A stretch of DNA of 64,000 nucleotides, from the NCBI GenBank assembly GCA_001662655.1, contig KV460206.1; one strand, written 5' to 3'. Under the pieces are notes generated by a model. The model did not search any database. It was not told where the DNA came from and saw only the letters and a list, made by a program, of their open reading frames with translations. A program made the position numbers and the translations under genes. The DNA is from Pseudogymnoascus verrucosus. Lineage: Eukaryota. Of this stretch, positions 45,791-63,654 are shown piece after piece. Every line of letters starts with the position of its first letter. The first letter of the stretch is position 1.

Positions 45791-46272
45791 TGTGTCTTTC
45801 CCTATGCTCTTGTGACGAATATATTCCGAGTTCAGTTCTGTCATAACGTGGTGGTTATCAACCAATGCTCGGACTAACATAAACCCGGGTACGAGCTCCA
45901 GTTTATCGCTGTGACCGCTCAAAGTGTGGAGTCGACAGGGTAAACTAACCAGCGACTATCCGTCCCGTCAACCATCGACCAAATGCGAAACCATACATTC
46001 GAGCTTCCGTGGCCTTTGGACGTAGAAAAGCGTCCTGACACCGAGTAGCTCAATCGAAAGCCTTCAGCCCTCCGACCCTACTACGAACCCCCACTAGCAG
46101 TCGAGAAACCACCGCCTCGAAAGCTCGGTCAGCACGTCGCATCCCCACGACCCCCCTTTCCTGACCCGCCCAGCTCCGCGCAGCCTCGTCAGCACCCCGC
46201 GCCCCCGAGGACTCGAACTCGACGCCCTCACCCGCCACCCGCGGATAGGCCTACTAGGCACGGGCAGGCCGG

Positions 46273-49200
46273 ATGGCGAGCTCGGCGGCGGCCGGCTTCC
46301 TGAGCCGGGGCACGAATGGCGGTGGCTCGAACATGCGCGGGCTCGTGCAGTTCATTGCGGACCTGCGGAACGCGCGCGCGCGCGATCTCGAGGAGAAGCG
46401 CATCAATAAGGAGTTGGCGAATATCCGACAGAAGTTCAAGGATGGGAGTCTCAGCGGATACCACAAGAAGAAGTATGTCTGCAAGCTGCTGTATATCTAT
46501 ATCTTGGGGTGGAATGTGGATTTTGGACATCTCGAGGCCATGAATCTTATCTCGGCGAATAAGTACTCGGAGAAGCAGATTGGGTATCTTGCGATGACGC
46601 TGTTTCTGCATGAGGAGCATGAGCTGTTGCATTTGGTGGTTAACAGTATACGGAAGGATTTGTTGGACCACAACGAGCTCTTCAACTGCTTGGCTCTGCA
46701 CGCCATTGCCAACGTGGGAGGAAGAGAGATGGGAGAAGCGCTCAGTGGAGAAGTCCACCGACTGCTGATTTCTCCAGCTTCAAAGTCGTTTGTGAAGAAG
46801 AAGGCTGCCCTCACACTGCTCCGGTTGTACCGGAAGCACCCAGATATCGTTCAGCCGCAGTGGGCGGAGCGCATCATCTCTCTCATGGATGATGCGGATA
46901 TGGGAGTTGCTCTGTCTGTTACCTCACTGGTTATGGCGCTTGCACAAGACAATCCAGAGCAGTACAGAGGGTCATATGTCAAGGCTGCTTCGCGCCTGAA
47001 GCGGATACTTGTTGACAACGAGTATCAGCCTGATTATCTGTATTACAAAGTTCCCTGCCCGTGGATTCAAGTTAAGATGTTGCGTTTGCTACAATATTTC
47101 CCTCCTTCAGGTATGTTCATCCCCTCTCTCTGCCGTACAGAAATTGACCAATAATCCAGATGATACCCATGTCCGGGAACTCCTTCGAGAGTCACTGCAA
47201 AAGATTCTCAACCTAGCACTGGAGATGCCCAAGAACGTTCAGCAAAACAACGCACAAAATGCCGTTCTTTTTGAAGCTATTAATTTGATCATCCACCTTG
47301 ATACCGAGCACGCACTCATGAAGCAGATATCCTCTCGGTTGGGGAGGTTCATTCAATCACGAGAAACGAATGTCCGCTACCTAGGCCTGGAAGCCATGAC
47401 CCATCTTGCTGCACGAGCGGAGACCTTGGATCCGATTAAGCAGCACCAGGATATTATCATCGGTTCCCTGAAGGACCGTGATATTAGCGTCAGGAGAAAG
47501 GGTCTCGACTTACTCTACAGCATGTGCGACGCCAGCAACGCCCAACCAATCGTAGGTGAGCTGCTCAAGTTCCTACAAAACGCCGACTTCGCCATACGCG
47601 AGGAGATGGTCCTGAAGATTGCGATTCTGACCGAGAAATACGCCACCGACGTGCAGTGGTACGTGGACATCTCCCTCCGCCTGATCGCCATGGCCGGTGA
47701 CCACGTCAGCGACGAGGTCTGGCACCGAGTCATCCAGATCGTCACCAACAACGAAGAGCTCCAGATCTACGCCGCGCAAAACACGCTCCAGTACGTCAAC
47801 GCCGAGCACTGCCACGAGACGCTCGTCAAGATCGGAGCCTACATACTCGGCGAATTCGGCCACCTCATCGCCGAAGACAAGAACTGCAGTCCGATCGAGC
47901 AATTCCTCGCCCTGCAAGGCAAGCTCCAAGGCTCCTCCTCCAGCACCCGCGCCATCATCCTCTCCTCCTTCATCAAATTCGTCAACCTCTTCCCCGAGAT
48001 CAAGCCGCAGCTGCTCCAAGTCTTCCGCGTCTACAGCCACACCTTGGACTCGGAACTCCAACAGCGTGCCTGCGAGTACCTCACCATCGCCTGCCTCCCC
48101 ACCGACGACCTACTCCGCACAATCTGCGACGAGATGCCTCCCTTCCCCGAGCGCGAATCCGCCTTACTGTCGCGGCTGCACCAGAAGCACGCTGGTACGA
48201 GCGATAAACGCACCTGGGTCATCGGCGGGAAAGACGCCAACGCCGACGCGCGCGAGCTCAATCTGGCGAAGAACCCAGGCCTCAAGCGCGCGTTCAGCAA
48301 CCAGACCGCTCCGCTCGCCGATAAGACTAGCCCCTCGATCCCCGGCCCAGACGGCTCCCTCGCCAGCCCAACCGGCGTACACGACCTCGCCGGGCTCGAC
48401 ATGCGTAACCTCGGCCCCGCGGAACCCAAGACCCTCAAGGCACCCAACCTCGCCAGCGCTGCTCACTTATCTCCAGACTGGGAAGTCGGGTACCAGCGCC
48501 TGCTCCTCAAGAACGAAGGCGTGCTCTACGAAGATCGCCAGATCCAAGTTGGCTTCCGCGCCGAGTTCCGCGGCCAGGCAGCATGCGTGATCCTCTACTT
48601 CTCCAACAAAGCTTCGAGTGCCATCAGTTCCTTCACCACCACCCTAGATGTCCCCGCGGAGGACAAGGCGAAACTGACATACGACGTCAAGGGCCTACCG
48701 GACGCGACCCTCAACGAAGGCGCGCAGGCCCAACAAATGATAATGTTCGAAGCGCGCGCGCCCTTCTCCAAGCCCCCCACAATGCGCATCTCCTACCTGG
48801 CCGGCGCGCTGCAAGCACTCACCCTCGCGCTCCCCCTCACCGTGCACAAGTTCATGGAATCAGCAGCGCTGTCGTCTGAGGATTTCTTCAGGCGGTGGAA
48901 GCAGATTGGCGGTGCGCCGCGGGAGGCGCAGCTGGTGTTTGGGGTTAAGGGGGTGGGTAGGTTTGATGCGGCAGGGGTGAGGAGGTGTGTGGAGGGATTT
49001 AGGTGGGGGGTGTTGGATGGGGTTGATCCGAATGCGAGGAATATTGTTGGGGCGAGCGTGTTGCATACTAGTGAGGTGGGGAAGGTTGGATGTTTGCTGA
49101 GGTTGGAGCCGAATTATGAGACGCAGGTATGTTTGTTTTCCGAGTTTTGCATGTCATTGCACTCTCTTACCTTTTTTCCGTTTCCTTCCTACCTACTCTT

Positions 49201-49532
49201 ACTCCTACTCCTGCACCTACTCCTGCCTCTTACCTCATCCCTCATTTCTCCCTCTGCTTCCTTTTTATTTTGTTGTCATCGCACTTGCACTCCGACAATG
49301 GCGTGCTCCCTCCCTACCCAACTCCCGAGACAATCCAGAACCCGACGACTAACACCCCCAGATGCTCCGCCTAACCATCCGCGCCACCGATGCCTCCGTC
49401 CCCTCCCTCCTCCTCGCCCTAATGACCGAGCGCCTCTCCTCCGGGACCGCCCAGCCCGCCACCATACACCGCGCCGAGACATCGCGGAGCGAGATGAATG
49501 ACGCGTTTGCGAATGTGATGGTTGAGGGGTAA
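46273..49532 (+). CDS. APL3: AP-2 adaptor complex alpha subunit
   Basis: MRGLVQFIADLRN, EEKRINKELANIRQKF and ELQQRACEY motifs; appendage ends GCLLRLEPN|MLRLTIRAT. Introns ~47111-47159 and 49127-49361. Confidence 0.97.
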
Positions 49533-52500
49533 TCCCTTCTTGCAGCCTACATCATGCGGCCCACACCTAAGTCCCTGGTCGCTGGTCCCTAATCCAGGTG
49601 GATGAACTGGTGGGGGTATGCCATCCGGGAAGGCTAGAGACGCAGTCCCGGCTCCGGGTGAGTGGACAGGGTGCGGCATGGTGGGGTATTGGTATGGGAC
49701 GGTGTGGGAGGGGCTAGAAGAAACTCACGATACGATACGATACGATATAGTGCCTGCACCGCATCGGGATCTATGATCAAAGTTGCAAGCAAGATGGGGG
49801 GTGGTGGGTGAGGGGCGTGGGGGATCTGCGCGCGGGTAGGAGTGGGGGTAGTTTGTTGATAAGGCGTGATGAAAGGTGTGGATGGATGGGGGTGGGGGGT
49901 TATATACGTACATAGGGATGTATGTACACGCTACGATTTTGATTCTGAATCTGGTATGTCTTTGTTTGGGTGTGTTGAAGTGAAGTGTCACCGGCGCGAT
50001 GTGAGCGGCTGCGGTGAATGTCGTCGTGAAGTTGGAATGAGGGAGTTGTGTACTTACCTTTTGCAATGTCGTTGTTGCCCCCCCACCCCACGCTGGAATC
50101 GTAGAGTCCAATGCTTACAAGCAGTACGAACACATGCCACACGCAGCACCCTCCCTTCTACCTCCCAACTTACCTTTCTGAACCCACCCCCCGCCACCAC
50201 CACCCACACTCACTCACATCATGACCCTCCTCCACCACACCACCACCACATCCACCACATCCACCTATCTCCCACCCCCAAAATACCCGCCTATTCACCC
50301 ACCCACCCCAAGCGTCCGCTCGGTCCGACCCCCTCCCTGGGACTTGCTACGACAAAACACCACGTTGCGCACACGTGGCAGCGGTAGATTGCAGTGCGCT
50401 GCATTGCATTGCATTGCCTCTCTCCCCCCCTGGATCGTAGCAGTAGCAGTAGCAGAAGGAGGTGGTAGGAGGTGGTTGTGGTGGTGGTGGTGGTTTGATC
50501 ATCGCTGGGGTTGGGTGTTGGGGATTTGCCTCGGTGGTGAGGTGAGGTGGTGAGGGCGGAATGTCGCGGGAGATGTTGGAGGGTTATGCGAGCCTCGGCA
50601 GGAGGATGTCGCTGCTGCTGCTGCTGTGTTCCGGGAACTTACCTGTAGCAAGCATGCAAGCTGACCGTTTCCATCCCATTCCGATCCCGTTTCCCATCGG
50701 GAAGGAATGTCGTGGAACAAACCGGCCGGGAAAGATCGCACAACAAAAACCCGTTGAGATGCTGCAGCCAGCCATAGCTGCAGCCAGCCCGCCAGCGAGC
50801 GATGCCCATAGCTCACTCAGCCAGGTAGGGGCATCGCGGCAGGGCCAGGGTTAGGGATATTTGAATTTGCGGCACCACAACGGTCGGTTCGGCGGTCTCG
50901 CAGGTTGCATTTCGGAGAAATTTGAAACGGGCGAGCATCCTGGAAGACCAGCCGCTTCCCTACTCTACTCCCTGTTTGCGGTATCCATGCGTGCATACAA
51001 TAGGCTTCCAAATAACCCTCACGCGCGGCTGCACTATTGCACACACACACACACGGACACGGTACAGTAAAGTAGATTCGTACAGTACCCTCCCTAACGG
51101 CACCTACCGCCGCTCCCCCCCTCCTCCCGTTCTCCCCGGCCCCAACAACACCGCCCTCCCTTCCATTCATCGAAAGACCGAAAACCAAGAAAACCAGATG
51201 ATCTAGCTCCATCCCAAAGAACAAAGAACGACCGACGCGCCGGCGGCGATCGACCGACCGACCGCGCATGCATGCGCCCCGCAAAAGGGGATACACACAT
51301 ACGGTACAGGTATACAGGTACCAACCCATCAACGGCCGTCGGCTCTAGCCCGAACGGGCACGCTCATCTCCGCGCGGTCGGATCCCGTGCGCGGGATGGG
51401 GGGGAGCGGCTCCGTGGTGGTGGGTGGGTGGGTGGGTGACGGGCGGTGTTTCAGGATGGGGGGCAGAGATTTCTCCGGGGTTGTATGGGGGAGATGTGCG
51501 GTGGGTGGTGGTTCGGAGAGTTGGCGAGATGATGGTGGTTTTTGGTGGTTGGTGATGATGGATGGGATTGGAATGGAGGAGGGATCGACTTTGGGTGGGG
51601 GACGAGCGAAAGGGCGCGAGGGAGGGAAGGGAACGGAAGGAAGGAAGGGTGGTTAGGGGGGTGGGGTTTCGGGTGCGTGCCGAGTGGTTTGGTTTCGTTG
51701 GTCTGATATTGGGTTTCGATGAAGGGGAAAGTGGGAAAGTAGGAAAGTGAGTTGGGAAGTAGAAGTGGAATGCAGGCGACAAACGCGATCCGTGAATCGC
51801 AAGGCCCATCCCGAACGCCTTCGCTGCACGTAGCCGTGAATATCAGATGAACTGCGTTCCATTCCACAGAACTCACTCCTGCGGGTGGGTGGACACACAC
51901 ACACAGAAGCCTGGCCCAGCCTCCCGAGCGGAGCCTTAAAGTTAAGTGCCGCCAGTCAGTCGGGCAGTCACATCTTAACAAACGCCACATATCGCCGTAA
52001 AAAAAGATAATGAGACACGTAAATATCGCGATGGTGGATGGGAAATGGGATATGTGACTCGTAGCCCGGGTGCCGTGTCAATCGCCCGTCAACGACTCGC
52101 ACCCATCCCTCCCACCGCGTCGGTAATGAATCCGAAACCACGAATCGGGGAGATAGGCAGACGCGGACTCACTCAGACAAAAAGCGGGCTTTGCATTTGC
52201 ATGGATTGGCCTTTCCACTTCCCGTGCTGCGCGCGCGGCGGCGGCGCATCCAAGATGAAGGCTTGCCGAAAGATTGCGGAAGTGCGGACGATGCTGCAGG
52301 TACGGCGCAGGAGAAGAAGCAGCTACGGTACAGCTCCCGCGGGCGGCGCTCCGCACATGTGCAGCCCGGTTGCCTCGTGGCGCCGGGGAAGCTGCAGGAG
52401 AGCTTCCGTAGCGCCATCCCGGCGGAAGGCTGGGTGGGGTGGGTGAGATCGCAGCGTTTGCTGAAAGGGGTTTAGGGTCATTTTAGGGAAAAAAGGTACG

Positions 52501-55500
52501 AGAGGGGCGGGTTGCATTATTTGGTATACTGTACTTTTGTAACTTCCTCGCTGTGGTCGCTGCGGAGGTCGCCTGCGCTTGGATGTTTGGACGAGTTGCG
52601 TGGTGTGTATAGTATAGTGTTACCAGACCGAACTCGTGGATGCGCTTTGTCTTAGTGTCAGATCATGGTGGCTGCTTGGCTTAGGCGCACGGCGGCCCGT
52701 TTGAAGAGAGGGCGGGCTGGACGAGGCCATGAATCCGGTTTGGCATTCTGAGTTCCCTTCCCGTGATACGAGTAATGTGCTACGGAGATGCCTCCTGTTT
52801 CTGCTTCCGCGCCCGCTCCCAACACGTGGAATGTGAACCGATACTGCTGCTCAACCAGCTCACTGGCCATGGAAATGAACTGCCGTTGGGCCTACAGTTT
52901 ATCCAGTTTGTCCACGTGCCCCGCCCTGTCTCGGGTCTCCTTTCTCTCGTTCTGCAAACCCGGCTCCGCGAGAGACATCCGTGGTGTTAGTGTCTGCTCC
53001 AGCGATCAGGGCACGACCCACCAGCCCGACAGCCTCACAATCGCGGCTCCACTGCCTCATCCACAGTGCCTGCTGTTACAGACAAGAGCGTACGAGTACC
53101 CTTCGTACCTTGTATAGCGCCTCAGGCCAACGCTTCTGGGCGACTTGGGGGAGAAACAGGCATGCGGAAAAGCTTGCGCAAATCCTCATATTATAAAGTG
53201 GAGAGTCCGACTGGCTAGCTTGGCAATGGATGGGGAGAGCTTGCCTGTTCCTGCTCAACCCCCTGTTGAATCCGGGAATGGCCAGTTCTTGCATACTGTG
53301 TCCTGGCAGACCACGTTGCCTTTTGCCGTTCGAAGTGGTAGTCCACCACGGCTGGATAAAGAAGGTCAGAGGGTTGTGTGTGTCTGTGTGTGCGTATGTG
53401 TGGTGGACGAAGCGCATCCATGGCTTGCTTGTCTCGTGAAGATTACGGTTCCACCTGTGTTTGCGGCACATCTGCATCATCGGCTGCGGATGCTTGCGTG
53501 GTGGGTAAGTTCTGTACTGTGCTGGCTGTTCCGTACTGTACTGTACTCCGTAATGGATGGCAGCGAAAGTTCTGCGGCAGGGGTTTGAGTGTTCTACCGG
53601 GCCCCCTCCCCCCCGTCTCCCCCCCCCTTCCCCTGTCCGTCGTGAGATTAGCAGGCTTCCATGCGTCTTCATCACCCATGTCGCGTTGCTTCCATGCATG
53701 AGAGACCCTTCGAAAGAGACCCTCCTACCTCCGAACCCTCCCAACGGAGAAAAGTGTACTATCTGTACTTTTGTAGTGTATGTAGGGTACATCCCATCCT
53801 AACTCTAGTAGGTTGTAGTCGTAGTCGTAGTCGTAGTCGCTGTCGTCGTAGGGTGCAGAGTACCACTTTACAACCGTGGGTAGGCACAGTACTCTGGTAA
53901 GGTAAGGTACCTTCCTCACACTAACCTTGCGTCGGCAAGGTACATAGTGGACGAACTGTAGCTAATTTCAGCGACCGAGATGAAATTTTGTCGGTTTTGT
54001 CGTGTGTTGAGATTGCGTTGAGGGTGTCTGTTCGCGTGTCAGAGGGTGCGCGTGTCCAGTACAGCCAGCTCTTCCAATATAGCCAACAATCGCCGAAGAG
54101 TACCCGCAAAGTGCTCAGTCAGTGCAGTGCAGTGCAGTGCCTTGTTTGGTCCCTTGATGTTTGTGCCGGCTGCCTATGCCTGTGTTTGCAAGTTTGACCC
54201 TTCGACCCATGAGGAAGGCAATCATGCGACTCATACCATCATCATACCATCATCGGTCGATCATATTCGGTCAGGATGAGCGATAGAGAGCGACAAGAAG
54301 GCAGGTGCTTGGAAGTTGGTGAAACGTGCTCGCTCTCCACTCAACGCGCTGGAGTGACTCTCAGGGCGCGCGGTTGCCTGGGGGACATTGGAAGGAAGGC
54401 AGGATGGATAGAGCAGGGATTTGATTTGACTGGATTTGATTTGAATTGAGGGTTTGAATTGGATGGCTGGGTTAGGAAGCTAATAATAATTCATGATATA
54501 GGGAATAAGGAGTTTCTGTTTGCTTCTTTCGCCACTTTAATAATAATAGGCCAATGAATATGTGATTATGTGTGATTATGTGTGATTTAGTTGTGATTTA
54601 TTTGAGTTAGGGAATAAAGTGAGCAGTCAGTCAGTGTGTTGAGAAGTGAGAGAGAGAGAGAGAGAGATGAGGGTGCAAGAGGATCGATGGGTACTTTACC
54701 CTGTACAGTAAAGTACAGTACAGCAGTAAAGTACAGTAAAGGTGATGAGATTTAGTGGTTTAGTGGTTTAGTGACAAACACGGTTAGCCCCGACGAACAG
54801 AACCCTTGGACGCCGCTTATGATACCCGATTCGTCGGAGTTCAGACTAGTCACTCTAGTGACTGCCCCTTTTGGGATTTCGGAGGGAGAAAAAGGTGATG
54901 AGAGGGAAGGGACGGGGTCTGTTTGTAGCGGAAGTACTAGGGGAGGATGCAGCTGTTCTGTCTGTGCTGTGATGAAGAGGTAGGGGATGGGACGGGGATA
55001 GAGAAGAAGAACAGGCGACGAGCAGGGCGAAAGAAAAAAGCAGGGCGTGGGATTAACTCGCAATCAGATTGCATTGCAAACAGACTGACTGACTGACTGA
55101 CTGACTGCCAGACTGCCAGCTCACAGAGGCAACTTTTCTCGTATTGTACTGCACAAACAGCCCGTAACGCCCATAGAAGCCCAAGGCAGACAGATCTAGA
55201 CCAGACCAGACAAGCCAGACACACAGACACCGAGAGAACAAATCATATAGAAGAAAGAAGAAACGCTCACGGTCACTCCTGCCAACTATAGCCAGAGTTC
55301 TAGGCACACCCCCCTTTTACCAAGAAGCTGTAACCAACCCACACCCACACCTAACACCCACACCCACACCAGCCTACCACTCCTCACACTCCCACACCTA
55401 TCCACACCCACCATGCCCACATCCACCACATCCACCACATCCACACCCACCCACTCCACCCACTCCCACTCCCACACCCACTTACCACACACCCACACCT

Positions 55501-57703
55501 ACACCCACTCCCACCAACCCTCCTGCACCCCTTCTTTACCATACCGCATCCCCGGAACCGACCGATCCCATTTCATTTGGCATTTAACATTGCTGCACGA
55601 TACAAAGAGTGTGTAGGCTGGTACATCCGCAAACATAGTAAAGTACACACCGTATCTCGTATATCTGTAGAGACACGATGTATTCTTTTCATTTCATAGC
55701 ATACTGCTGGTTATACAGTATAGTATAGTACACACAGATAGATTGAGTGCACATATTCATTTACTCTACTCTGCTCCGTTCTGTTCTGTTCTACTCTACC
55801 TGGCTAAACGGGCTGTACAGCGCTGCAAAGTAACTGACTCACACGACTCACTCACTCTACCTGCACCGCGCTCTGTCATATACCTCATCCATTTATGCTT
55901 CATCATCATATACCTCAACCATCTCACACTGAACCAACCAAACCAACCTAACTATAGAAACAAGAACCACACTACTCACCAAGGGGCTTCCCGGGGAGAT
56001 CGGGAACGCGGGAAAATGGAAAACAGCAAAAATATGACACAAAAATAAACAAAAAACCGACAGAAAACAAAATCCAGAAACTGTGATGCAATCAAGCTAA
56101 CTGTGAAACATTACCACGGCAGCCACAAACCAGGCACCACACAGGAACAGCACCACCAAAACACGAACGCCGCGGTGGTGCTCGGAACAAACCAAAAAAA
56201 GTGAGAGGCTATCGATGGGGGACAGGGGGGGAGGCGCCATCTTTGTGCAATGGGTGCACACAGGGGAGGAGAGGGCGATGGTGCCGCTGCTGTGCGATGT
56301 GTAACGCCCGCATAGTATGAGTGTGTGTCTGTGTACATTGCATACGAAGTTGCATACTGATGTTCTGTGTGCGGTATGCGTGCATAGTATGAGGATGCAT
56401 ACTGAGCGTACATACTGAGCATACACACACACATGCACATACTATGATGAGTATAATATGTAGAGTATAATATGTAGAGTATAAATATGTATGTATAGTG
56501 GTTGCATGTACCTCTAACGCGCACATACATATCTCACCTACCTTTTTCTTCGTCCTGTCGTATGTACATTACTACCGTAAATATGTACACTCCTACTACT
56601 ACTACTTCTACTACTACTACCACCACTAAACTACATACATGCTTGGACCCATCCCCCATCTAATCCCGTACCCGTACCCATACCCATACCTCTCTAACTC
56701 TCCTTGTCCCTTCTTCCCTACTGTATTATTCCCCTTCCCCTTCTCCTTCTCCTTCTTCTCCTTCTTCTTCCCTTACCCATCTTACCCATCCCCTAACCCC
56801 CTGTCCCCCTGTCCATCCTCCCCTACCCCCTGCCCCCCTGCCCCTTCCCTTCCCACCCCCCCCTCCCCCCCCCTAACCCCCGTCACCCATACCCGTACTC
56901 ATATCCACTCTCCCATACTCCATCACATCCCATACTACTAAATTATAAAGTACCACACTCTACAAACTAAACCAAAACTGTACCTTGTCCCATACCAACC
57001 CCATCCCCCATTCCCAACCCCTGGCAACAAAATCAAACTCTCACACTCATCCCAACTCATCTCTCCTCTACCTACTACCTACTCTCCCCTTTCATATATA
57101 ACACACTGCCACCCCTACGCACACTAATCTCGTTTTTTTATTTTATTTTATTTTGCATTCCTCCCCGTGTGCTCTTTCCTCTACATCCATCCATCTATCT
57201 ATCTATCTTTCGCTCTCTCTCTATCTCTCATCCTCAAAACTACAAGAAAGACAAAAACTGCAAGCCACGGTGCATATACACACACGTCAACATCCCAGCA
57301 ACAATTATTTCCACCTCTAAACCCAACACACCGCACCCAAACACCTCCTCCAACGCACCACCCTCTCCCGCTGGGCAAACTAGGCATTCTCGATACACAA
57401 ACAGCCCTTGTCACCACATACATCCGCCTCGCACATCAGAAAGAGCCAACAATCCACATATAACCCGCGCCGTCCGGCACCAAGCTTCCCACGAACACCA
57501 ACCCGCCAGCGTCACCGCTCCCAAGTTAGCCACCATTACCACCCCTACCTCACCACCACCCCGGACGCTCCACAGAGGCCCGCTTGAAACAACATCAGAG
57601 CCCAACGAACCGCGCTGCTGCTGCTGAAGTGCCAGCACTCCCCGCGTCCTGATCCCCCCTCCCCCGGGAGCTCTCCTTTCGTCCAAGCCGCCCTCTCTTC
57701 CTT

Positions 57704-57893
57704 GTGAGTAGTTCCTGGATTTTTATTAATAATCTCATGCCCTACCCCTCTCGTTCCTTCCTGCACGGAAAAAGCACACAAAAGAAATACAGCTTCACAC
57801 GAGAAATGCGAAGGAAAAAGAGACGCAGAAAGATACACACGCGATCACAAGCTTCAAAAGACCAAATAACTTACTTTTTTGTCTCTTACACAG
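57704..57893 (+). other. Putative 5'-UTR intron of an unannotated transcript
   Basis: GTGAGT donor, TAAC branch-like site, pyrimidine tract and ACACAG acceptor 21 nt before a CAACATG start. Confidence 0.55.
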
Positions 57894-57914
57894 ACTACAC
57901 GCACAAAACTCAAC

Positions 57915-58007
57915 ATGATCACCTCAGAGTTCCCCGACTTCAACATGGGCCGCGGCGCCTACGACACAACCGGCGTTGAGAAGCCCCCGAAGCCAAAGCC
58001 AAAATAA
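57915..58007 (+). CDS. Candidate micropeptide MITSEFPDFNMGRGAYDTTGVEKPPKPKPK (30 aa; 20 aa from the second ATG at 57945)
   Basis: Two in-frame ATGs both in TCAACATG context, strongly C/G-ending codons, and an upstream intron. No long ORF with coding character nearby. Confidence 0.55.
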   Translation: MITSEFPDFNMGRGAYDTTGVEKPPKPKPK

Positions 58008-61000
58008 ATACTTCACCCTCTCGACACCCACCACAACCCCCTCTCGAGGACGCCCGCGCGGGTCACAAGGAGGACGAGGAGGGGCATGGAACCCTTCTCT
58101 TCTGTTCCTGACGATCCCGCCGGGTGGCTGAACCACACCGATGAGCCGTGCCGGTGGCATGGGCTCGAAGATCGAATATACCGTCCGCTTTTATACTCTT
58201 AATAATTACAACCCCAGCGGAGGAGACTTAATAATACTGTCACATTATATCTGTACCACCAACACCACGACTGCAACGACACTACACCTACACCTACACA
58301 GGCGCGCACGCAGCCAGCCAAAAAGTCATACATCTATACTACACATCATCATCACCATCGTTTCTACCACACCGACACACCACATGGCGGCGCACCAATC
58401 GTTTTACACATCTTTATTTCATTTTCTTGTCAGTTTTCAAAGAAGCGCGAATTACACGAGAGAGAGGGGGAGAGGCACTCAAAATGCACAATCAACATCA
58501 AAAGTCGGGGAAATTTCACAGGCGTTTTTAAATTATAGACTGGGGTTACAATACTGGGAACAGGGCAGGGAATTTTTTGCGGGGGTTCAATATAGCGGTT
58601 GCGTTTTTCTCTATTTTAGCATGCATCCTTTTTTACATCGTTTTGGTTTACTTCTCTCGCGGGATTTTAGCAGCTTTGGTTTTTTTTTTCGCTTCTTGGT
58701 CTTCGGGGTTCGTTTTTTATATTTCTTGTTCGGTCACCAACGTCACCTTGGGGTCACTCGGGTGGGGGGGGGGGGGGGATGGGGAAGGGAGGGGGTTATC
58801 TGCTTTACCAAAATGTTATCATCGGGGCGGTCGGGTCGGTCGGTGGGGGCTTGGATAGGCAAAATAAACTGGGAGGATAGGATATGGGGTGTTGGCAGGA
58901 GGCAAATCGTTTTTTAAAGACTCCGTTTTTATCATTTTACTACTACTTTTAACTCATTTTTGGATAGATACCCGTCCGCGCTTTCTAGACAGAGCCCTTT
59001 TTTGTACGAGTTTTTATCTTTGGTCTTTTTTTGGTTTTGGTTTTTGAAAGAGACGTTTATTAGAACTGGGCATCGACAGCACCGAGACCGCAAGCCGCAA
59101 GGGAATGGGCAGAGGAGAAGGAGAGGGGGGATATATGGATAATTTTTAGAGAAAGGATATGGATAATTATTTTGATATACTTGATATACACCCCGTCATG
59201 CTCCCATCGTGACTCGACGCAACTCCCCCTGCTTCCGCAAATGTCTTGATGCGGATTCCTGCTTTGGCAGTGCATGAACTTCTTCTTCTCACCGTTCACA
59301 TAATTTTCGACAATTCTCATGAGTTTTACAAGATTTTGTGAATCGTTTGTGCGCTGGGCGCCATGACCGGATTGGTTACTCGACCCCGTTGGGCATCTGT
59401 ATTGGCTGTATGCGTTGGCTGCGGATGGGATTGGAGACATTTTGGGGGGGGGGGGATTTTATGACAGCAGTAGTGCAGTGCAGCGCATCGCAGTGCATCG
59501 TAGTGCATTACGGTGCATACTGTAGGAGCGCAGGTGTATGACGTGGTATGTTGTCGTATTTGCGCGCGGTATGTAGACACGGCAATGTTCATACCCGTCC
59601 GTTGGCTTCGTCATATTTGCTGTGGCCAGCGGTGGTGATGTGTGTGTGTTAAATGGCAGAACTACATGCAGGATGGAGATGTCTGGATTGCAGATTTGGG
59701 ATTGCGAAGGGAAAGGTGCATGTTAACTATTTGCGGAAATGCAGATTGCAGATGTAGATTCTGGATTGCGCAGTTCATGTACAAGCCGTCGTTTTTTCTA
59801 CAGTTGGGGAGATGATGGCAACCGACTGTAGAGTCTAGACTCTAGATGCTGGATGGATAGATGGATAGGTGGCGGTGTAAGTTATTTCCAAAACCGTAGA
59901 TTGCTTATCATGCCTGGGCGGCCATCATTTACGTGTCGTGTCGTCAGATGGATAGCGACGTTCTGTGGATATTGTCTCGCAATAGTGCAGGTCTGCAGAT
60001 TTTGGGACTCTGACTCTGACTCTGGATCACGAACATCTCATCTCATCTCATCGCGCATTTTGTGGATACAAAGAATCCATCCCCCATCCATCTCACCCAC
60101 ACCCACCTCTATTCTGTTACTACTGTAACTGCACCATACCTGTTCCTGAGCGGGTGGAAATCGCGATAACTCGCTTCACGCGGGAGACACCCAGCGGCGG
60201 ACCCACCGCGCCTGTACGAAAGCGGAGTCGGCGAGCTGGACCGGGGGGGTGGGATGATGCACGGCGTGAGTCAGGCCGGTTTTTTACGCTGTGCCGGGGG
60301 TTGGGGGATTATGAGAAGATGGAGATGGGAAGGGGGAAAATCGGGATTTGGATTTGGAGGCTGAGACACGGAATCGCGATGCGACGGGACGGGTGGGAGG
60401 ATGAATGGGATAGTTTCATGGGCAACAGGGCGGTAATCGATCACATTCATTTGCATTACATTTCTGTCATATTTTTGTTATGATGTGATGTGGCGCTGAG
60501 ACGGCAAGAGAGGTGTCTCGGTCGATAGGCTCAGCGCGGATGGGGCCGCAGATGTGGTTGGGAGGCGATGTCTCATTCTCATCTGATCTTTATCATATTT
60601 TTTCCTATGTGTGTGTGTGTTTCGGTTCGGGATGTGGGCTGGATGGGAGGTGTACGCCGTGTGTCGGGGGAGAGGTGAGATGGAACGCGGAGTGGCGAAG
60701 TGGAGTGAAGGGTTGGATAGGGTCTGAGGTGGGAATGTTGTTGTTGTTAGCTGAGGTTGTTGATGGGGTGTATAAATAAGGTTGGAAGTGATGGATGTGA
60801 TAGATGTGATGGAAGGTAAATTGTGAAAATGGGAGAAGGTGTTTTTGGCCACTCAGACATTCTTCATTCATGCTATCGTCGGGGAATCTTAAGCATGTCC
60901 CCCGACAGCTTACGGCGAGTGAATGGTGTCTCATCACTGTGGAATCTCCTCCTCTCCTCCTCTCCTGCTCTTCTTCAGGGTGATAATGAAAGGCGAGTAC

Positions 61001-61528
61001 TTACACTAATCAATATTTATCCGTTTGAACCCTTTTCTGTGTTGAAATTTCGCCTCGAGCTCAAGCCTCAAGAGATACACACACAGCCAGTATTCAAAAG
61101 AAAAGAAGGAGAAGAATCAGCAAATCTCGAGATGCACAGCGTTATTTATTTGCCAGAGCAGCGGTGCCAAGATCTTAAGCGGGTCTCGCCGCCCTGTCAG
61201 ATCGGGGAAATTGGGATCCGGGGTGGAGCTATTCGGCGTCCTAGTATGGACTAGTAAGATACCACGTGATAATATAAGAGACATTGCACGTGATGTGATT
61301 AGGTAATGCTGCTATTGTGAGTGGTGATGGTGGGGTACGACGACGTAGGCAGGCGGGACTGTGACAGGACGGAATAGCAGGAGCAGCTACAGCAACGTCA
61401 ACACAACTCGCCATCCATTCACCTCACCTCACCTCACCAACACAACTCTCAGGACCTTACCTGAACCACCACCAACCACACTTACACACAAATCCACCCA
61501 ACCTCGAATCCACCGCCACGACACCACC

Positions 61529-62240
61529 ATGTCGATAATCCAATCCCACACCTCCGCCTCCCTCACCGACCACTGGCGCACAATCGACATCGACGCCCTC
61601 GACCCCGAATCCTCGCGCAACTTCCCCATCGCCACCCTCGCCGCGCCGCCGAGTGGACCGAGAGCGCTTGATGCACAGAGCGTGAGGGGACTTTTGAGGG
61701 GAGGGGATGCGGAGGGGGCGCTGAGGGGGGCGGTGGGGAGTGGGGTTGATAAGGTGCGTTTGCTTTGCTTTTTGGGGGATGGGGGAGTGGGAATTGGAGG
61801 GGGTTAGACGGGGGAAAGGAAGGACATCGGCTAATGGTGAATAGGATGCGCAACTCCAGATCGTCATTGAGGTCCTCCAGTCTATCAAGGCTGCGGATAT
61901 GACGCCGCTTCTGCGCAGCGTGTATGCCTCTGAGGGTGGATCGGATGTGCTTGATTCGCTGATGAAGTACTTGTAAGTTCCTCCCCACTTCCTCCCAATT
62001 ACCTCTGTTGTTGTGCTGTCTGCAGGTCCGTTTTGTGGAAATGGCAGAGGGACACTGGTAGGGACACAAGCTGATGCAATGCGAAATAGGTACGCAGGAA
62101 TGGCAGCACCAACGCAGCAGCGACAGGGCGAGAGCAGCGGCGCGGCGATGAGCGTGCTTCTTAGCTGGCATGAGAAGGTCGTTGAGGTTGCGGGATTGGG
62201 GTGTGTGGGGAGGGTGATGACGGATCGGAGGACTACCTAG
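61529..62240 (+). CDS. ARC15: Arp2/3 complex subunit ARPC5 (p16-Arc)
   Basis: WRTIDIDALDP, LLRGGDAEGALR, DSLMKYLYAGM and VLLSWHEKVVEVAGLGCVGRVMTDRR motifs. Introns ~61754-61843 and ~61973-62089. Confidence 0.93.
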
Positions 62241-62499: not shown

Positions 62500-63654
62500 T
62501 CAATTTATACTCCCCCCTCCCAAAATATCCTTCATATTCACCTCTCCTGTCCCCCTCTCCAACGGCTTCATCTGATCCGGACTCTCCTTCCACCCAATAA
62601 AAAAGATCACCCTAAAAGTTGCCGGTATCCCCTCCTTCCCGGGCTCCCCATACAACTCCTTATAAATCCCACTCGCCGCCGCCAACACCTCCCGTCCGAT
62701 CCCACCCATTTCCCTACCTAGCACCGCGTTACTCTCCCCCATCGCCTGCAGGTCTCTCATCAGCGCGAAGATATCGGGGAACTCGACGACGATATCTTCC
62801 ACATCCACTGTCAGGAGTTTGAACCCCGCTTTCGTCAACAGCCCGCCGATGTCCCGCACATCCGCCAATGGCGAAGTATGGGGCGCTACACCCCCGCGCC
62901 GTTCTTGCGATGCGAGCTGTAACGCAGTGCGCATCTCGAACAACGTGTCCCCCCCAAACATAGCAGCTATAATCGGCGCATCTGGTTTCAACGCGCGATT
63001 CACATGTGCCAGTAGCGCGGGGAGGTCATTAACCCAGTGCAGCGCCAGAGAAGAGAGGACGGCATCGAAAGTATCCGCTTCGTATGGTAGGGACTCGAGG
63101 GTGGGGAGGACGGTGCGGGTTATGGCTAATGGCGAGGGGAGGGGGAGTGCGTCGTCGCGGTGGAGAAGCGTGGGCGAGGTCTCGGCGCAGGTTAAGTGCC
63201 CGATGCGCTCGCTGGCGGGGGCTTCGGTGGGGGAGAGGGGCGTGGTGAGGGCGCGGGAGAGGTTGCATGCGTTGGCGCCGAGGTCGAGGATGTGGGGGAA
63301 GTCGCGGTTGATGTCCTGTTGCGGGGAGTGTTAGCTTGGGCGTGTTCTTCTAGTTTATTCTTGGCTGGGGAGAGGGGGAAGGGGACGAACGAGCAGGCGG
63401 TCAGCGAGACGGGTAGCGATCTCGTCGCGGAGGTAGTCGACTTCGCGGCTCTGTTCTGGCTTGGAAGCTGCGCGCTCTTTCTGGAGGTGCTTGACGTGCG
63501 AGTTGAAGACTTGGAGGGTTGGTGCGCCGGGGGCTTGAATGGCGTAGGTGCGTGTGCGTGGTGTGAATGGGGAGGAGATTCGGGTACAGGGGAGGGAGGA
63601 GGAGATGGCCGGCCGGCGGCACCGGAGGAGGGGGCGGAGGGCGAGGGGTCTCAT
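62500..63654 (-). CDS. Mitochondrial complex I assembly methyltransferase-fold protein (NDUFAF5 family)
   Basis: Presequence, DYLRDEIATRLADRLL|DINRDF, LHWVNDLP, FGGDTLFE, ERRGGVAPHTSP and LMRDLQAMGESNA. Intron ~63316-63389. Confidence 0.93.

Follow-up and report, generated by a model that had tools for sequence, protein, structure and literature searches.

A spliced 30-codon micropeptide gene in a gene-poor stretch of Pseudogymnoascus verrucosus and its undescribed family in filamentous ascomycetes

Introduction

Can a gene-poor stretch of a fungal genome conceal a gene whose product is only 30 residues long, and how might such a peptide act? The question is raised by a window of 64,000 nucleotides (nt) from Pseudogymnoascus verrucosus (contig KV460206.1 of assembly GCA_001662655.1; the window is the whole stretch of DNA that was analysed, and all positions refer to it), in which an earlier interpretation made without database searches, hereafter the sequence-only reading, placed a spliced micropeptide gene within a desert of about 12 kb. 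Judging from its relatives, the finding is wider than that reading, as the 30-codon open reading frame (ORF) at this locus is one member of a widespread, strongly constrained and unnamed micropeptide family of filamentous ascomycetes. We are nearly certain that it is a real gene under selection at the level of the peptide, and we regard an independent two-exon micropeptide gene, the product of which acts as a free linear-motif ligand, as the probable explanation overall.

The 30-residue peptide has an 11-residue invariant core and is kept across four classes of filamentous ascomycetes, including major pathogens of plants, animal pathogens and laboratory models. Its orthologue in Neurospora crassa (NCU03451) and those in other tractable fungi make the function directly testable, the family signature lets annotators correct hundreds of gene models, and the case indicates that gene-poor 'deserts' of fungal genomes can conceal strongly selected genes built on a small open reading frame (smORF).

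Results and discussion

Relatives of the peptide

A word-indexed protein search with a 45-residue stop-to-stop frame found two relatives. The 128-residue model KFX90937.1 of Pseudogymnoascus sp. VKM F-3808 ends in the peptide with one change; among the relatives that bear a name, a protein model from Pseudogymnoascus, a genus of the Leotiomycetes, comes nearest. The 30-mer itself, compared by phmmer with 1.84 billion representatives, gave 32 matches at E<=1e-3, from which P0019 (2543 residues) was discarded as spurious and devoid of the core motif, while a profile of ten short members reached 176 clusters of 16-121 residues and 74 clusters of 122-2000 residues. The named matches come from Neurospora crassa (NCU03451, an 84-residue model), Sordaria macrospora (33 residues), Podospora, Pyricularia, Fusarium, Trichoderma, Verticillium, Colletotrichum, Diplocarpon, Hymenoscyphus, Oculimacula, Aspergillus, Penicillium, Trichophyton, Thermomyces, Alternaria, Bipolaris, Parastagonospora, Zymoseptoria, Cercospora, Venturia and Aureobasidium, genera that presumably span the Sordariomycetes, Leotiomycetes, Eurotiomycetes and Dothideomycetes. 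None of the named matches lies outside Pezizomycotina, no search having been aimed at other fungal genomes.

The source labels read 'hypothetical', 'uncharacterized' or 'unnamed' with three exceptions, namely an automatic 'Secreted protein', a 'dihydrofolate reductase' on a 47-residue JGI protein and one identifier string. Pfam returned no family for the peptide at E<=1 and no entry for any of the short profile matches, the PDB held no relative (best E = 1.2), and the ESM Atlas gave no usable match. A full-text literature search by motif, by the identifiers NCU03451, SMACR_12796, TRIVIDRAFT_227797 and TRIATDRAFT_317300 and by smORF terms found no paper on the peptide, with subscription journals and most supplements lying outside its reach. 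The family was found to be undescribed, without a name, Pfam entry or assigned function, and the gene to be a smORF-encoded micropeptide gene without a described relative. In vegetative mycelium of N. crassa, supplement file 5 of PMC4169166 lists NCU03451 at 31.6 fragments per kilobase per million (FPKM) in the dark and at 27.3, 53.3, 41.8 and 10.3 FPKM after 15-240 min of light, with no significant light effect in that file; the gene was not found in the portion of the supplement files of PMC7403615, PMC5217103, PMC9831608 and PMC6437048 that was searched.

The core lies at most 26 residues from the C-terminus in 115 of the 133 fetched proteins. Many deposited models carry unrelated N-terminal extensions of up to 240 residues (P0004, P0010, P0011, P0013, P0018, P0067 and others), and others contain an invented intron that bypasses the stop codon, as in P0015 and in NCU03451 with its 84 residues against 33 in Sordaria. 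By this comparison many public models of the gene are probably wrong, and the expectation of the sequence-only reading that gene finders would miss it is borne out by public models that are either about 30 residues long or bear unrelated N- or C-terminal extensions. Taken at face value, these models would make the ORF the last coding exon of a larger protein, since KFX90937.1 and others of 96-338 residues end in the peptide after a long N-terminal extension. We consider this extremely improbable, as the extensions are mutually dissimilar, none of the three positions is conserved in the codons ahead of the Met, the spliced frame of the window has a TGA at 57650, exon 1 lacks any ATG, and no Pfam domain is present in 73 of the 74 long models, the exception being a merged model that has swallowed the neighbouring GTPase. 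The earlier claim that no larger gene ends in this ORF agrees with these observations.

Selection on the coding sequence

A scan of metagenome contigs with the pattern N[MF]GRGAYD gave 211 matches, from which 170 loci were confirmed by tblastn and 80 were kept. Together with the window these make 81 loci, in 76 of which a Met precedes the Asn by 8-12 residues; the five loci lacking such a Met (L014, L021, L034, L036 and L069) were excluded from later counts. The 76 loci represent 54 distinct nucleotide ORFs, 34 of which have A at -3, and the ORF is 29-34 codons long in 75 of the 76 loci, that of L071 extending to 59.

Because the search itself fixes the eight pattern residues, selection was measured outside them. 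In the seven codons that follow the pattern (T, T, G, V, P, K, P), variability amounts to 0-1.1 bits at codon positions 1-2 and 1.0-2.0 bits at position 3; at positions 1-2 the values approach 0 bits for T, T, G, K and the second P, with 1.5-1.9 bits at position 3 of T, T and G, and codons upstream of the start vary at all three positions. Synonymous (pS) and nonsynonymous (pN) differences and their rate ratio (dN/dS) were computed as pooled pairwise Nei-Gojobori values, which are descriptive and carry no formal test, the pairs being phylogenetically non-independent. The same seven codons (TTGVPKP) gave pS 0.73, pN 0.088 and dN/dS 0.034, the leader segment M-I-x-R-E pS 0.70, pN 0.28 and dN/dS 0.18, the four variable leader residues pS 0.72, pN 0.61 and dN/dS 0.54, and the upstream pseudo-codons pS 0.68, pN 0.66 and dN/dS 0.92. 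Compared by blastn with the other 65-70 loci, the flanks of the window ORF (1000 nt upstream, 1500 nt downstream) gave no meaningful similarity, with only short matches at E>=0.001. The codon-position signature and the unalignable flanks therefore indicate conservation of a protein-coding type that does not extend beyond the ORF. The conservation and dN/dS checks proposed with the sequence-only reading have both been run, and peptide and frame are kept in relatives (170 loci, 176 + 74 clusters, dN/dS about 0.03). Downstream frames were also tried as coding sequence and rejected, since their similarity is restricted to close relatives and appears simultaneously in several frames.

The same data bear on the possibility that the locus produces a long non-coding RNA in which the ORF is a chance or untranslated feature. 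The ORF occupies only about 5% of a transcript of about 1.8 kb, and its translation is deduced, which would suit such an RNA. It is nevertheless strongly disfavoured, to the point that we give it hardly any credence, by conservation confined to the ORF, by the codon-position signature with dN/dS of 0.03 against 0.92 in the flank, and by an ORF whose start, length and stop are kept in 75 of the 76 loci amid unalignable flanks.

The peptide

The product is a leaderless, basic and unstructured micropeptide in three parts, an N-terminal M-I-x-R/S-E segment, the core and the tail (Table 1). Among 44 unique peptides of at most 40 residues, the columns N10, G12, R13, G14, A15, Y16, D17, T18, T19, G20 and P24 are invariant and M1, M11, K23, P26 and P27 are at least 90% conserved, giving the family consensus MIxRExxxxNMGRGAYDTTGVPKPPPPKPR. 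In the window ORF, C or G ends 24 of the 30 codons and both ATGs share the context TCAACATG, two features that the sequence-only reading had already described. Some species, N. crassa and Sordaria among them, have Phe in place of the second Met, so that neither internal initiation nor N-myristoylation at this residue can be general, and the latter was dropped as a candidate.

The peptides of the alignment have a median net charge of +3 and a Pro fraction of 0.20, and all 44 end in a basic residue (R in 31, K in 13), the final residues varying among PR, PK, RR, SK, KR and NR. A PPP stretch occurs in 35 of the 44 and is absent from the window peptide. An SH3-type motif ([RK]xxPxxP or PxxPx[RK]) was found in 38; as it is missing from six, the window peptide included, an SH3 ligand was dropped as a universal feature. 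No CaaX motif was found in any of the 44, the window peptide being free of Cys, nor a dibasic site in the leader of the single-core peptides (0/44). A hydropathy scan, run without a dedicated predictor, showed no stretch resembling a signal peptide, the highest 8-residue Kyte-Doolittle mean being 1.23 and the median 0.16, in line with the earlier description of a tiny basic, Pro/Lys-tailed peptide without a signal sequence. AlphaFold2 supplied with the 44-sequence alignment predicted no secondary structure (predicted template modelling score, pTM, 0.15; mean predicted local distance difference test, pLDDT, 70), with an extended chain and the highest pLDDT (81) in the Pro/Lys tail.

Most fetched members (122/133) have a single core, and the other 11 carry two or three copies of the core in tandem within a single frame (for example P0005, P0006, P0012, P0017, P0031 and the Xylariales models P0007 and P0008). 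The spacers between cores are acidic or hydrophobic, the first core sometimes begins at Met1, and on inspection the borders of the cores are not regularly flanked by KR or RR. The units of P0009 consist of the core, VPK and a 4-residue linker ending in N and nothing more, and N or D recurs two residues ahead of the core Gly. The multi-core members therefore point to the core with a short basic stretch as the functional module.

The transcript at the window locus

Parts of 57000-59000 are contained in 17 sequencing runs from 12 studies, and four of these were aligned to 56500-59499. In the run X1, a 946-nt contig matches 57238-57703 and continues at 57894-58373, skipping exactly 190 nt with GT..AG ends, and in X5, a metatranscriptome on record, a 151-nt contig has the identical joint 57703->57894 with a short side of 19 nt. 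X15, a DNA-like assembly with contigs of up to 248 kb, spans the intron without a joint. The joint in X1 and X5 therefore indicates that the locus is transcribed on the + strand and spliced as the sequence-only reading had predicted, the junction check attached to that prediction having now been run. Other X1 contigs cover 58357-58524, 58830-59016 and 58997-59179, so that the transcript extends from 57238 or earlier to about 59179 and the RNA continues for about 1.17 kb past the stop codon. In the read alignment 57124-57237 is masked as repeats, and no RNA contig covers the sequence upstream of 57238; the true 5' end probably lies between about 57100 and 57238. The TATA-like sequence earlier noted at about 57093 is present. 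The exact window peptide (P0003) is also found on three JGI/IMG contigs, the longest of 1765 nt, and a one-residue variant on a contig of 1778 nt, lengths that would correspond to a mature RNA from about 57.2 to 59.18 kb.

The RNA-supported leader of 487 nt is C/A-rich, as had been read from the sequence (C 207, A 138, T 73, G 69), and contains no ATG, where 2.4 would be expected under a first-order Markov model (P(0) = 0.086). The intron contains two ATGs, at 57737 and 57806. After intron removal an in-frame TGA lies upstream at 57650-57652, 54 nt of exon 1 being counted from its first letter (57703-57650+1) and exon 2 being in codon phase from 57894, and the remaining ORFs of the spliced RNA are short or compositional, none of them carrying the core motif. 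The only conserved element of the transcript is the 30-codon ORF, and the gene occupies 57.1/57.24-59.18 kb on the + strand. Removal of the AUG-bearing intron would leave the AUG at 57915 as the first one downstream of the AUG-free C/A-rich leader and thus as the start of translation; leader and intron together favour initiation at this position.

Table 1. Features at the micropeptide locus and in its surroundings in the window
Feature	Position	Strand	Basis and remarks
Alpha-adaptin	46258-49498		Pfam
ORF-poor upstream region, putatively regulatory	49500-57092	.	No Pfam match in ORFs >=100 residues
TATA-like CATATATAAC, putative element	57093-57102	+	Sequence match
Exon 1, RNA-supported part of the 5' leader	57238-57703	+	X1 contig 57238-57703, X5 contig 57420-57570
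Intron in the 5' untranslated region (5'UTR), 190 nt, GTGAGT..ACAG	57704-57893	+	Joint in X1 and X5
Exon 2 leader, 21 nt ahead of ATG, A at -3	57894-57914	+	Sequence and RNA contigs
Micropeptide ORF, 30 codons + TAA	57915-58007	+	ATG 57915-57917, TAA 58005-58007; reads MITSEFPDFNMGRGAYDTTGVEKPPKPKPK
Leader part MITSEFPDF (family M-I-x-R-E-x4)	57915-57941	+	M1 nearly invariant; I, R, E/D frequent
Invariant core NMGRGAYDTTG	57942-57974	+	Alignment of 44 unique peptides
Pro/Lys tail VEKPPKPKPK (family [VT]PKP, then P/K-rich, final K/R)	57975-58004	+	K23, P24 (nearly) invariant
3'UTR, about 1.17 kb, not conserved	58008-59179	+	X1 contigs
ARPC5 (P16-Arc), intron-split	61349-62237 (61349-61804 and on)	+	Pfam
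Class-I methyltransferase	62503-63330	-	Pfam

How the peptide may act

We propose that the translated peptide would be a free short linear-motif ligand that acts in trans. A conserved partner in the cell would be bound specifically by its invariant core, while a second and less specific contact, for example with SH3-like or acidic surfaces, would come from the extended, basic tail of polyproline type. Paralogs in which the core is repeated two or three times in tandem would represent multivalent forms of the same ligand. For the trans-acting intracellular mode taken by itself, we put the chances at slightly below even.

In kind, the family resembles the arthropod tarsal-less / polished rice / mille-pattes (tal/pri/mlpt) peptides, with which it has no likeness in sequence. 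They too come from a non-coding-looking transcript, with the function residing in peptides of 11-32 residues that share a short invariant motif, repeated in some versions, and that have no signal sequence and act as free intracellular ligands. The likeness of their LDPTGxY motif to YDTTG is superficial and involves no sequence homology. Whereas tal/pri transcripts are polycistronic with LDPTGxY in each of several smORFs, the window has a single core-bearing ORF and the family has one core or two to three in one frame; furthermore, tal/pri occurs in animals and the present family in filamentous ascomycetes.

The family was also compared with other classes of small peptides. Precursors of a-factor-like lipopeptide pheromones (mfa-1 / ppg2) are likewise ORFs of 20-40 codons without a signal peptide on a long mRNA with a long 3'UTR, matched in size by the 29-34 residues of the family and as easily overlooked by gene finders, but they need a CaaX motif, which is absent from a family that ends in K or R throughout, and the conservation of the family core from class to class greatly exceeds that of pheromones. 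Upstream open reading frames (uORFs) of filamentous fungi that encode conserved peptides, such as the arginine attenuator peptide, likewise specify about 24-34 residues in a very small ORF close to the 5' end of a long RNA; they are followed by a main ORF, whereas the family transcript in the window has none, neighbours change and multi-core forms exist. Apidaecin-type precursors, Kex2-processed repeat precursors and those of ribosomally synthesized and post-translationally modified peptides (RiPPs) consist of short basic Pro-rich units with Tyr, and some family members similarly repeat with acidic spacers. Kex2-processed and UstY-type RiPP precursors have, however, a signal peptide, dibasic borders and a tailoring cluster, while the family has neither a signal peptide nor tailoring neighbours and seems to lack regular dibasic sites. 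The family fits none of the tested fungal classes, that is, lipopeptide pheromones, secreted repeat or RiPP precursors and arrest uORFs.

The multi-core members also raise the possibility that the ORF encodes the precursor of an exported and processed signalling peptide, similar to a pheromone or hormone, from which the core (the mature form being perhaps a 13-mer [MFL]GRGAYDTTGVPK) is released from leader and tail and leaves the cell by a non-classical route, the multi-core forms being polyprecursors. The a-factor, which leaves the cell through an ATP-binding cassette (ABC) transporter, provides a model for such an exit. Two or three cores with acidic or hydrophobic spacers in 11 of 133 members resemble multi-copy precursors, and the sparse units of P0009, the recurrent N or D ahead of the core Gly, very large upstream regions suggestive of complex regulation, and a short ORF with a long 3'UTR reminiscent of N. 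crassa mfa-1, all speak for it. We nonetheless judge it unlikely, as no hydrophobic stretch (maximum 8-residue mean 1.23), CaaX motif or leader dibasic site was found in the 44 peptides, unit borders lack consistent dibasic sites on inspection, no processing or tailoring enzyme adjoins the gene in 13 loci, and the conservation of M-I-x-R-E and of the tail would be unexpected in discarded parts. A bolder version, for which we see only a very slim chance, is that of an ancient leaderless signalling peptide of filamentous ascomycetes whose GRGAYDTTG core, delivered from single- and multi-core genes by non-classical exit, serves as a diffusible inter-hyphal cue. The core is a candidate for such a cue because it is near-identical across classes; one example would be the signal for germling or hyphal fusion, which is not known to have been identified and is reported to work even between species.

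Several points weigh against the free-ligand interpretation or the evidence behind it. X1 was taken as RNA by guess, and the AUG-free leader, at the P value given above, is not significant by itself and suggestive only. Part of the invariance of N-[MF]-GRGAYD among the 80 loci comes from the search pattern itself, and the unconstrained phmmer matches vary in this region, with A, S, G, T or E at position 15, TT, TS or AT at the two Thr positions, and G, D or V thereafter. The assignment of the genera to four classes is, except for Pseudogymnoascus, presumed. Translation of the ORF is predicted, and the docking partner is a postulated one. The window peptide and five others lack a canonical SH3 motif, so that this detail is not universal, and the multi-core forms fit a processed polyprecursor equally well as a multivalent ligand.

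Genomic neighbourhood and a possible role in cis

The term gene desert proved apt, as none of the 46 stop-to-stop ORFs of at least 100 residues between 49422 and 61251 has a Pfam match, and a Pfam-free upstream region of at least 3 kb is found in all 13 long related loci. Two observations bear on the conjecture of the sequence-only reading that the locus may be developmental and heavily regulated, namely this recurrent upstream space and the expression of NCU03451 in vegetative mycelium without a significant light effect. Downstream on the same strand, as in the window, ARPC5 follows in about ten loci at a distance of 1.3-3.6 kb; in others it lies upstream in divergent or same-strand orientation, and elsewhere it is absent within 5 kb. 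The sequence-only reading had directed attention to the APL3-ARC15 interval of related genomes, where the ARC15 side is often kept and APL3 was not seen within the 5-kb flanks. A Rab5-like Ras-family GTPase is the downstream neighbour in nine of the 13 long loci, the Pfam-recognised neighbours of which comprise ARPC5, the Ras-family GTPase, a class-I methyltransferase (beyond ARPC5 in some loci), a sugar transporter, FIT, glyoxal oxidase and APH, with no processing or tailoring enzymes among them; those of the window are adaptin, ARPC5 and the methyltransferase. A linkage of micropeptide, ARPC5 and methyltransferase is observed in many lineages with changed order and orientation (L013, L020, L049, L051, L061, L064, L075, L077 and L080) and looks like an old microsynteny block. 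A uORF of ARPC5 is excluded because the orientation of ARPC5 depends on the lineage.

This arrangement is relevant to the idea that the frame regulates in cis, the nascent peptide with its Y-D core and polyproline tail stalling the ribosome in response to a metabolite or to eIF5A status and so setting the stability of its own mRNA (for example by nonsense-mediated decay via the long 3'UTR) or the expression of a neighbour. A peptide of 30-34 residues is approximately of exit-tunnel length and is conserved along its whole extent, PPP occurs in most family members, a 93-nt ORF is followed by a 1.17-kb 3'UTR, a same-strand gene (ARPC5 or the Rab5-like GTPase at the distances and frequencies given above) often lies downstream, and known arrest peptides of fungi, the arginine attenuator peptide among them, have a similar size. 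The window transcript has, however, no conserved downstream ORF, as its long open 3'UTR frame is broken by indels and lacks a Pfam match, and its RNA contigs end at about 59179, about 2.3 kb short of ARPC5. The identity and orientation of neighbours change between lineages, the window peptide has no PPP, the final residues are variable, and tandem multi-core ORFs are hard to square with a single arrest site. We therefore hold a cis-acting frame to be quite improbable and retain the free ligand acting in trans as the preferred explanation.

Gene structure in related loci

A candidate intron, defined by a GT[AG]NGT donor together with a branch point of the CTRAY type and a YAG acceptor at most 80 nt before the ATG, is present at the equivalent place in 34 of 45 testable distinct loci versus 53 of 507 random anchors, nine loci having too little upstream sequence for the test. 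The window intron fails the CTRAY-type branch-point pattern although it is proven by RNA. The donor 8-mer GTGAGTCA occurs at -109 to -222 from the ATG in 30 of 44 distinct loci versus 6 of 564 background windows, the window donor (57704-57711) being GTGAGTAG. Donor positions +7 and +8 lie outside the usual consensus, and TGAGTCA is the heptamer of the AP-1/Gcn4 (bZIP) type; the donor may double as such a site.

In the alignment of these upstream regions (A3), branch and acceptor are conserved, and within groups conservation also takes in about 60 nt ahead of the donor. A TATA-like TATATAAG and its variants stand between donor and branch in many lineages (A3 columns ~380-455; for example in L046, L056, L064, L025, L077, L080, L020, L050 and L075), with TTTTTATTAATAAT at 57720-57735 as the window counterpart, and from its sequence this element may be an alternative internal promoter. 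No pairs of spliced and unspliced contigs were found among the related loci, where the short contigs of other lineages are genomic, lacking poly(A) and retaining the acceptor region, and set no transcript ends. At L069, degenerate copies of the core are located at 2273 (+) and 1951 (-), about 300 nt apart and both reading on without the usual tail, possibly a rearranged or decaying copy.

Minor observations around the transcript

The 3'UTR in the window contains a 258-codon open frame (58141-58917, +) of low complexity in T/G-rich and C/A-rich stop-poor DNA, which has no Pfam match and is interrupted among related strains by indels of -6, -4, -3, +3, +2, -1 and -2. This frame is a compositional artefact that could mislead gene finders; long open frames also follow the micro-ORF in several relatives (for example L013, L050 and L075) without conservation at the protein level. 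In a GC-rich part of the 3'UTR, a 38-codon ORF (58086-58202, +; MEPFSS...) weakly matches the Pfam family Laterosporulin below threshold (E = 0.0011, with 19.8 bits where the cut-off is 25), and no conservation of it was seen among the other loci. An Rfam scan of 49000-62000 returned only mir-297 at E = 0.94, far below the gathering score, and this match was taken as chance. In both X5 and X15, large numbers of 31-nt contigs pile up to very high depth on a G-run at about 58760-58795, an effect of low-complexity cross-matching that breaks the RNA contigs there. Upstream, 55000-58000 shows a strong excess of C over G (GC skew -0.33 to -0.49) that reaches about 2 kb upstream of exon 1, together with CA-, CT- and CCA-rich simple sequence and short tandem repeats at 57124-57237.

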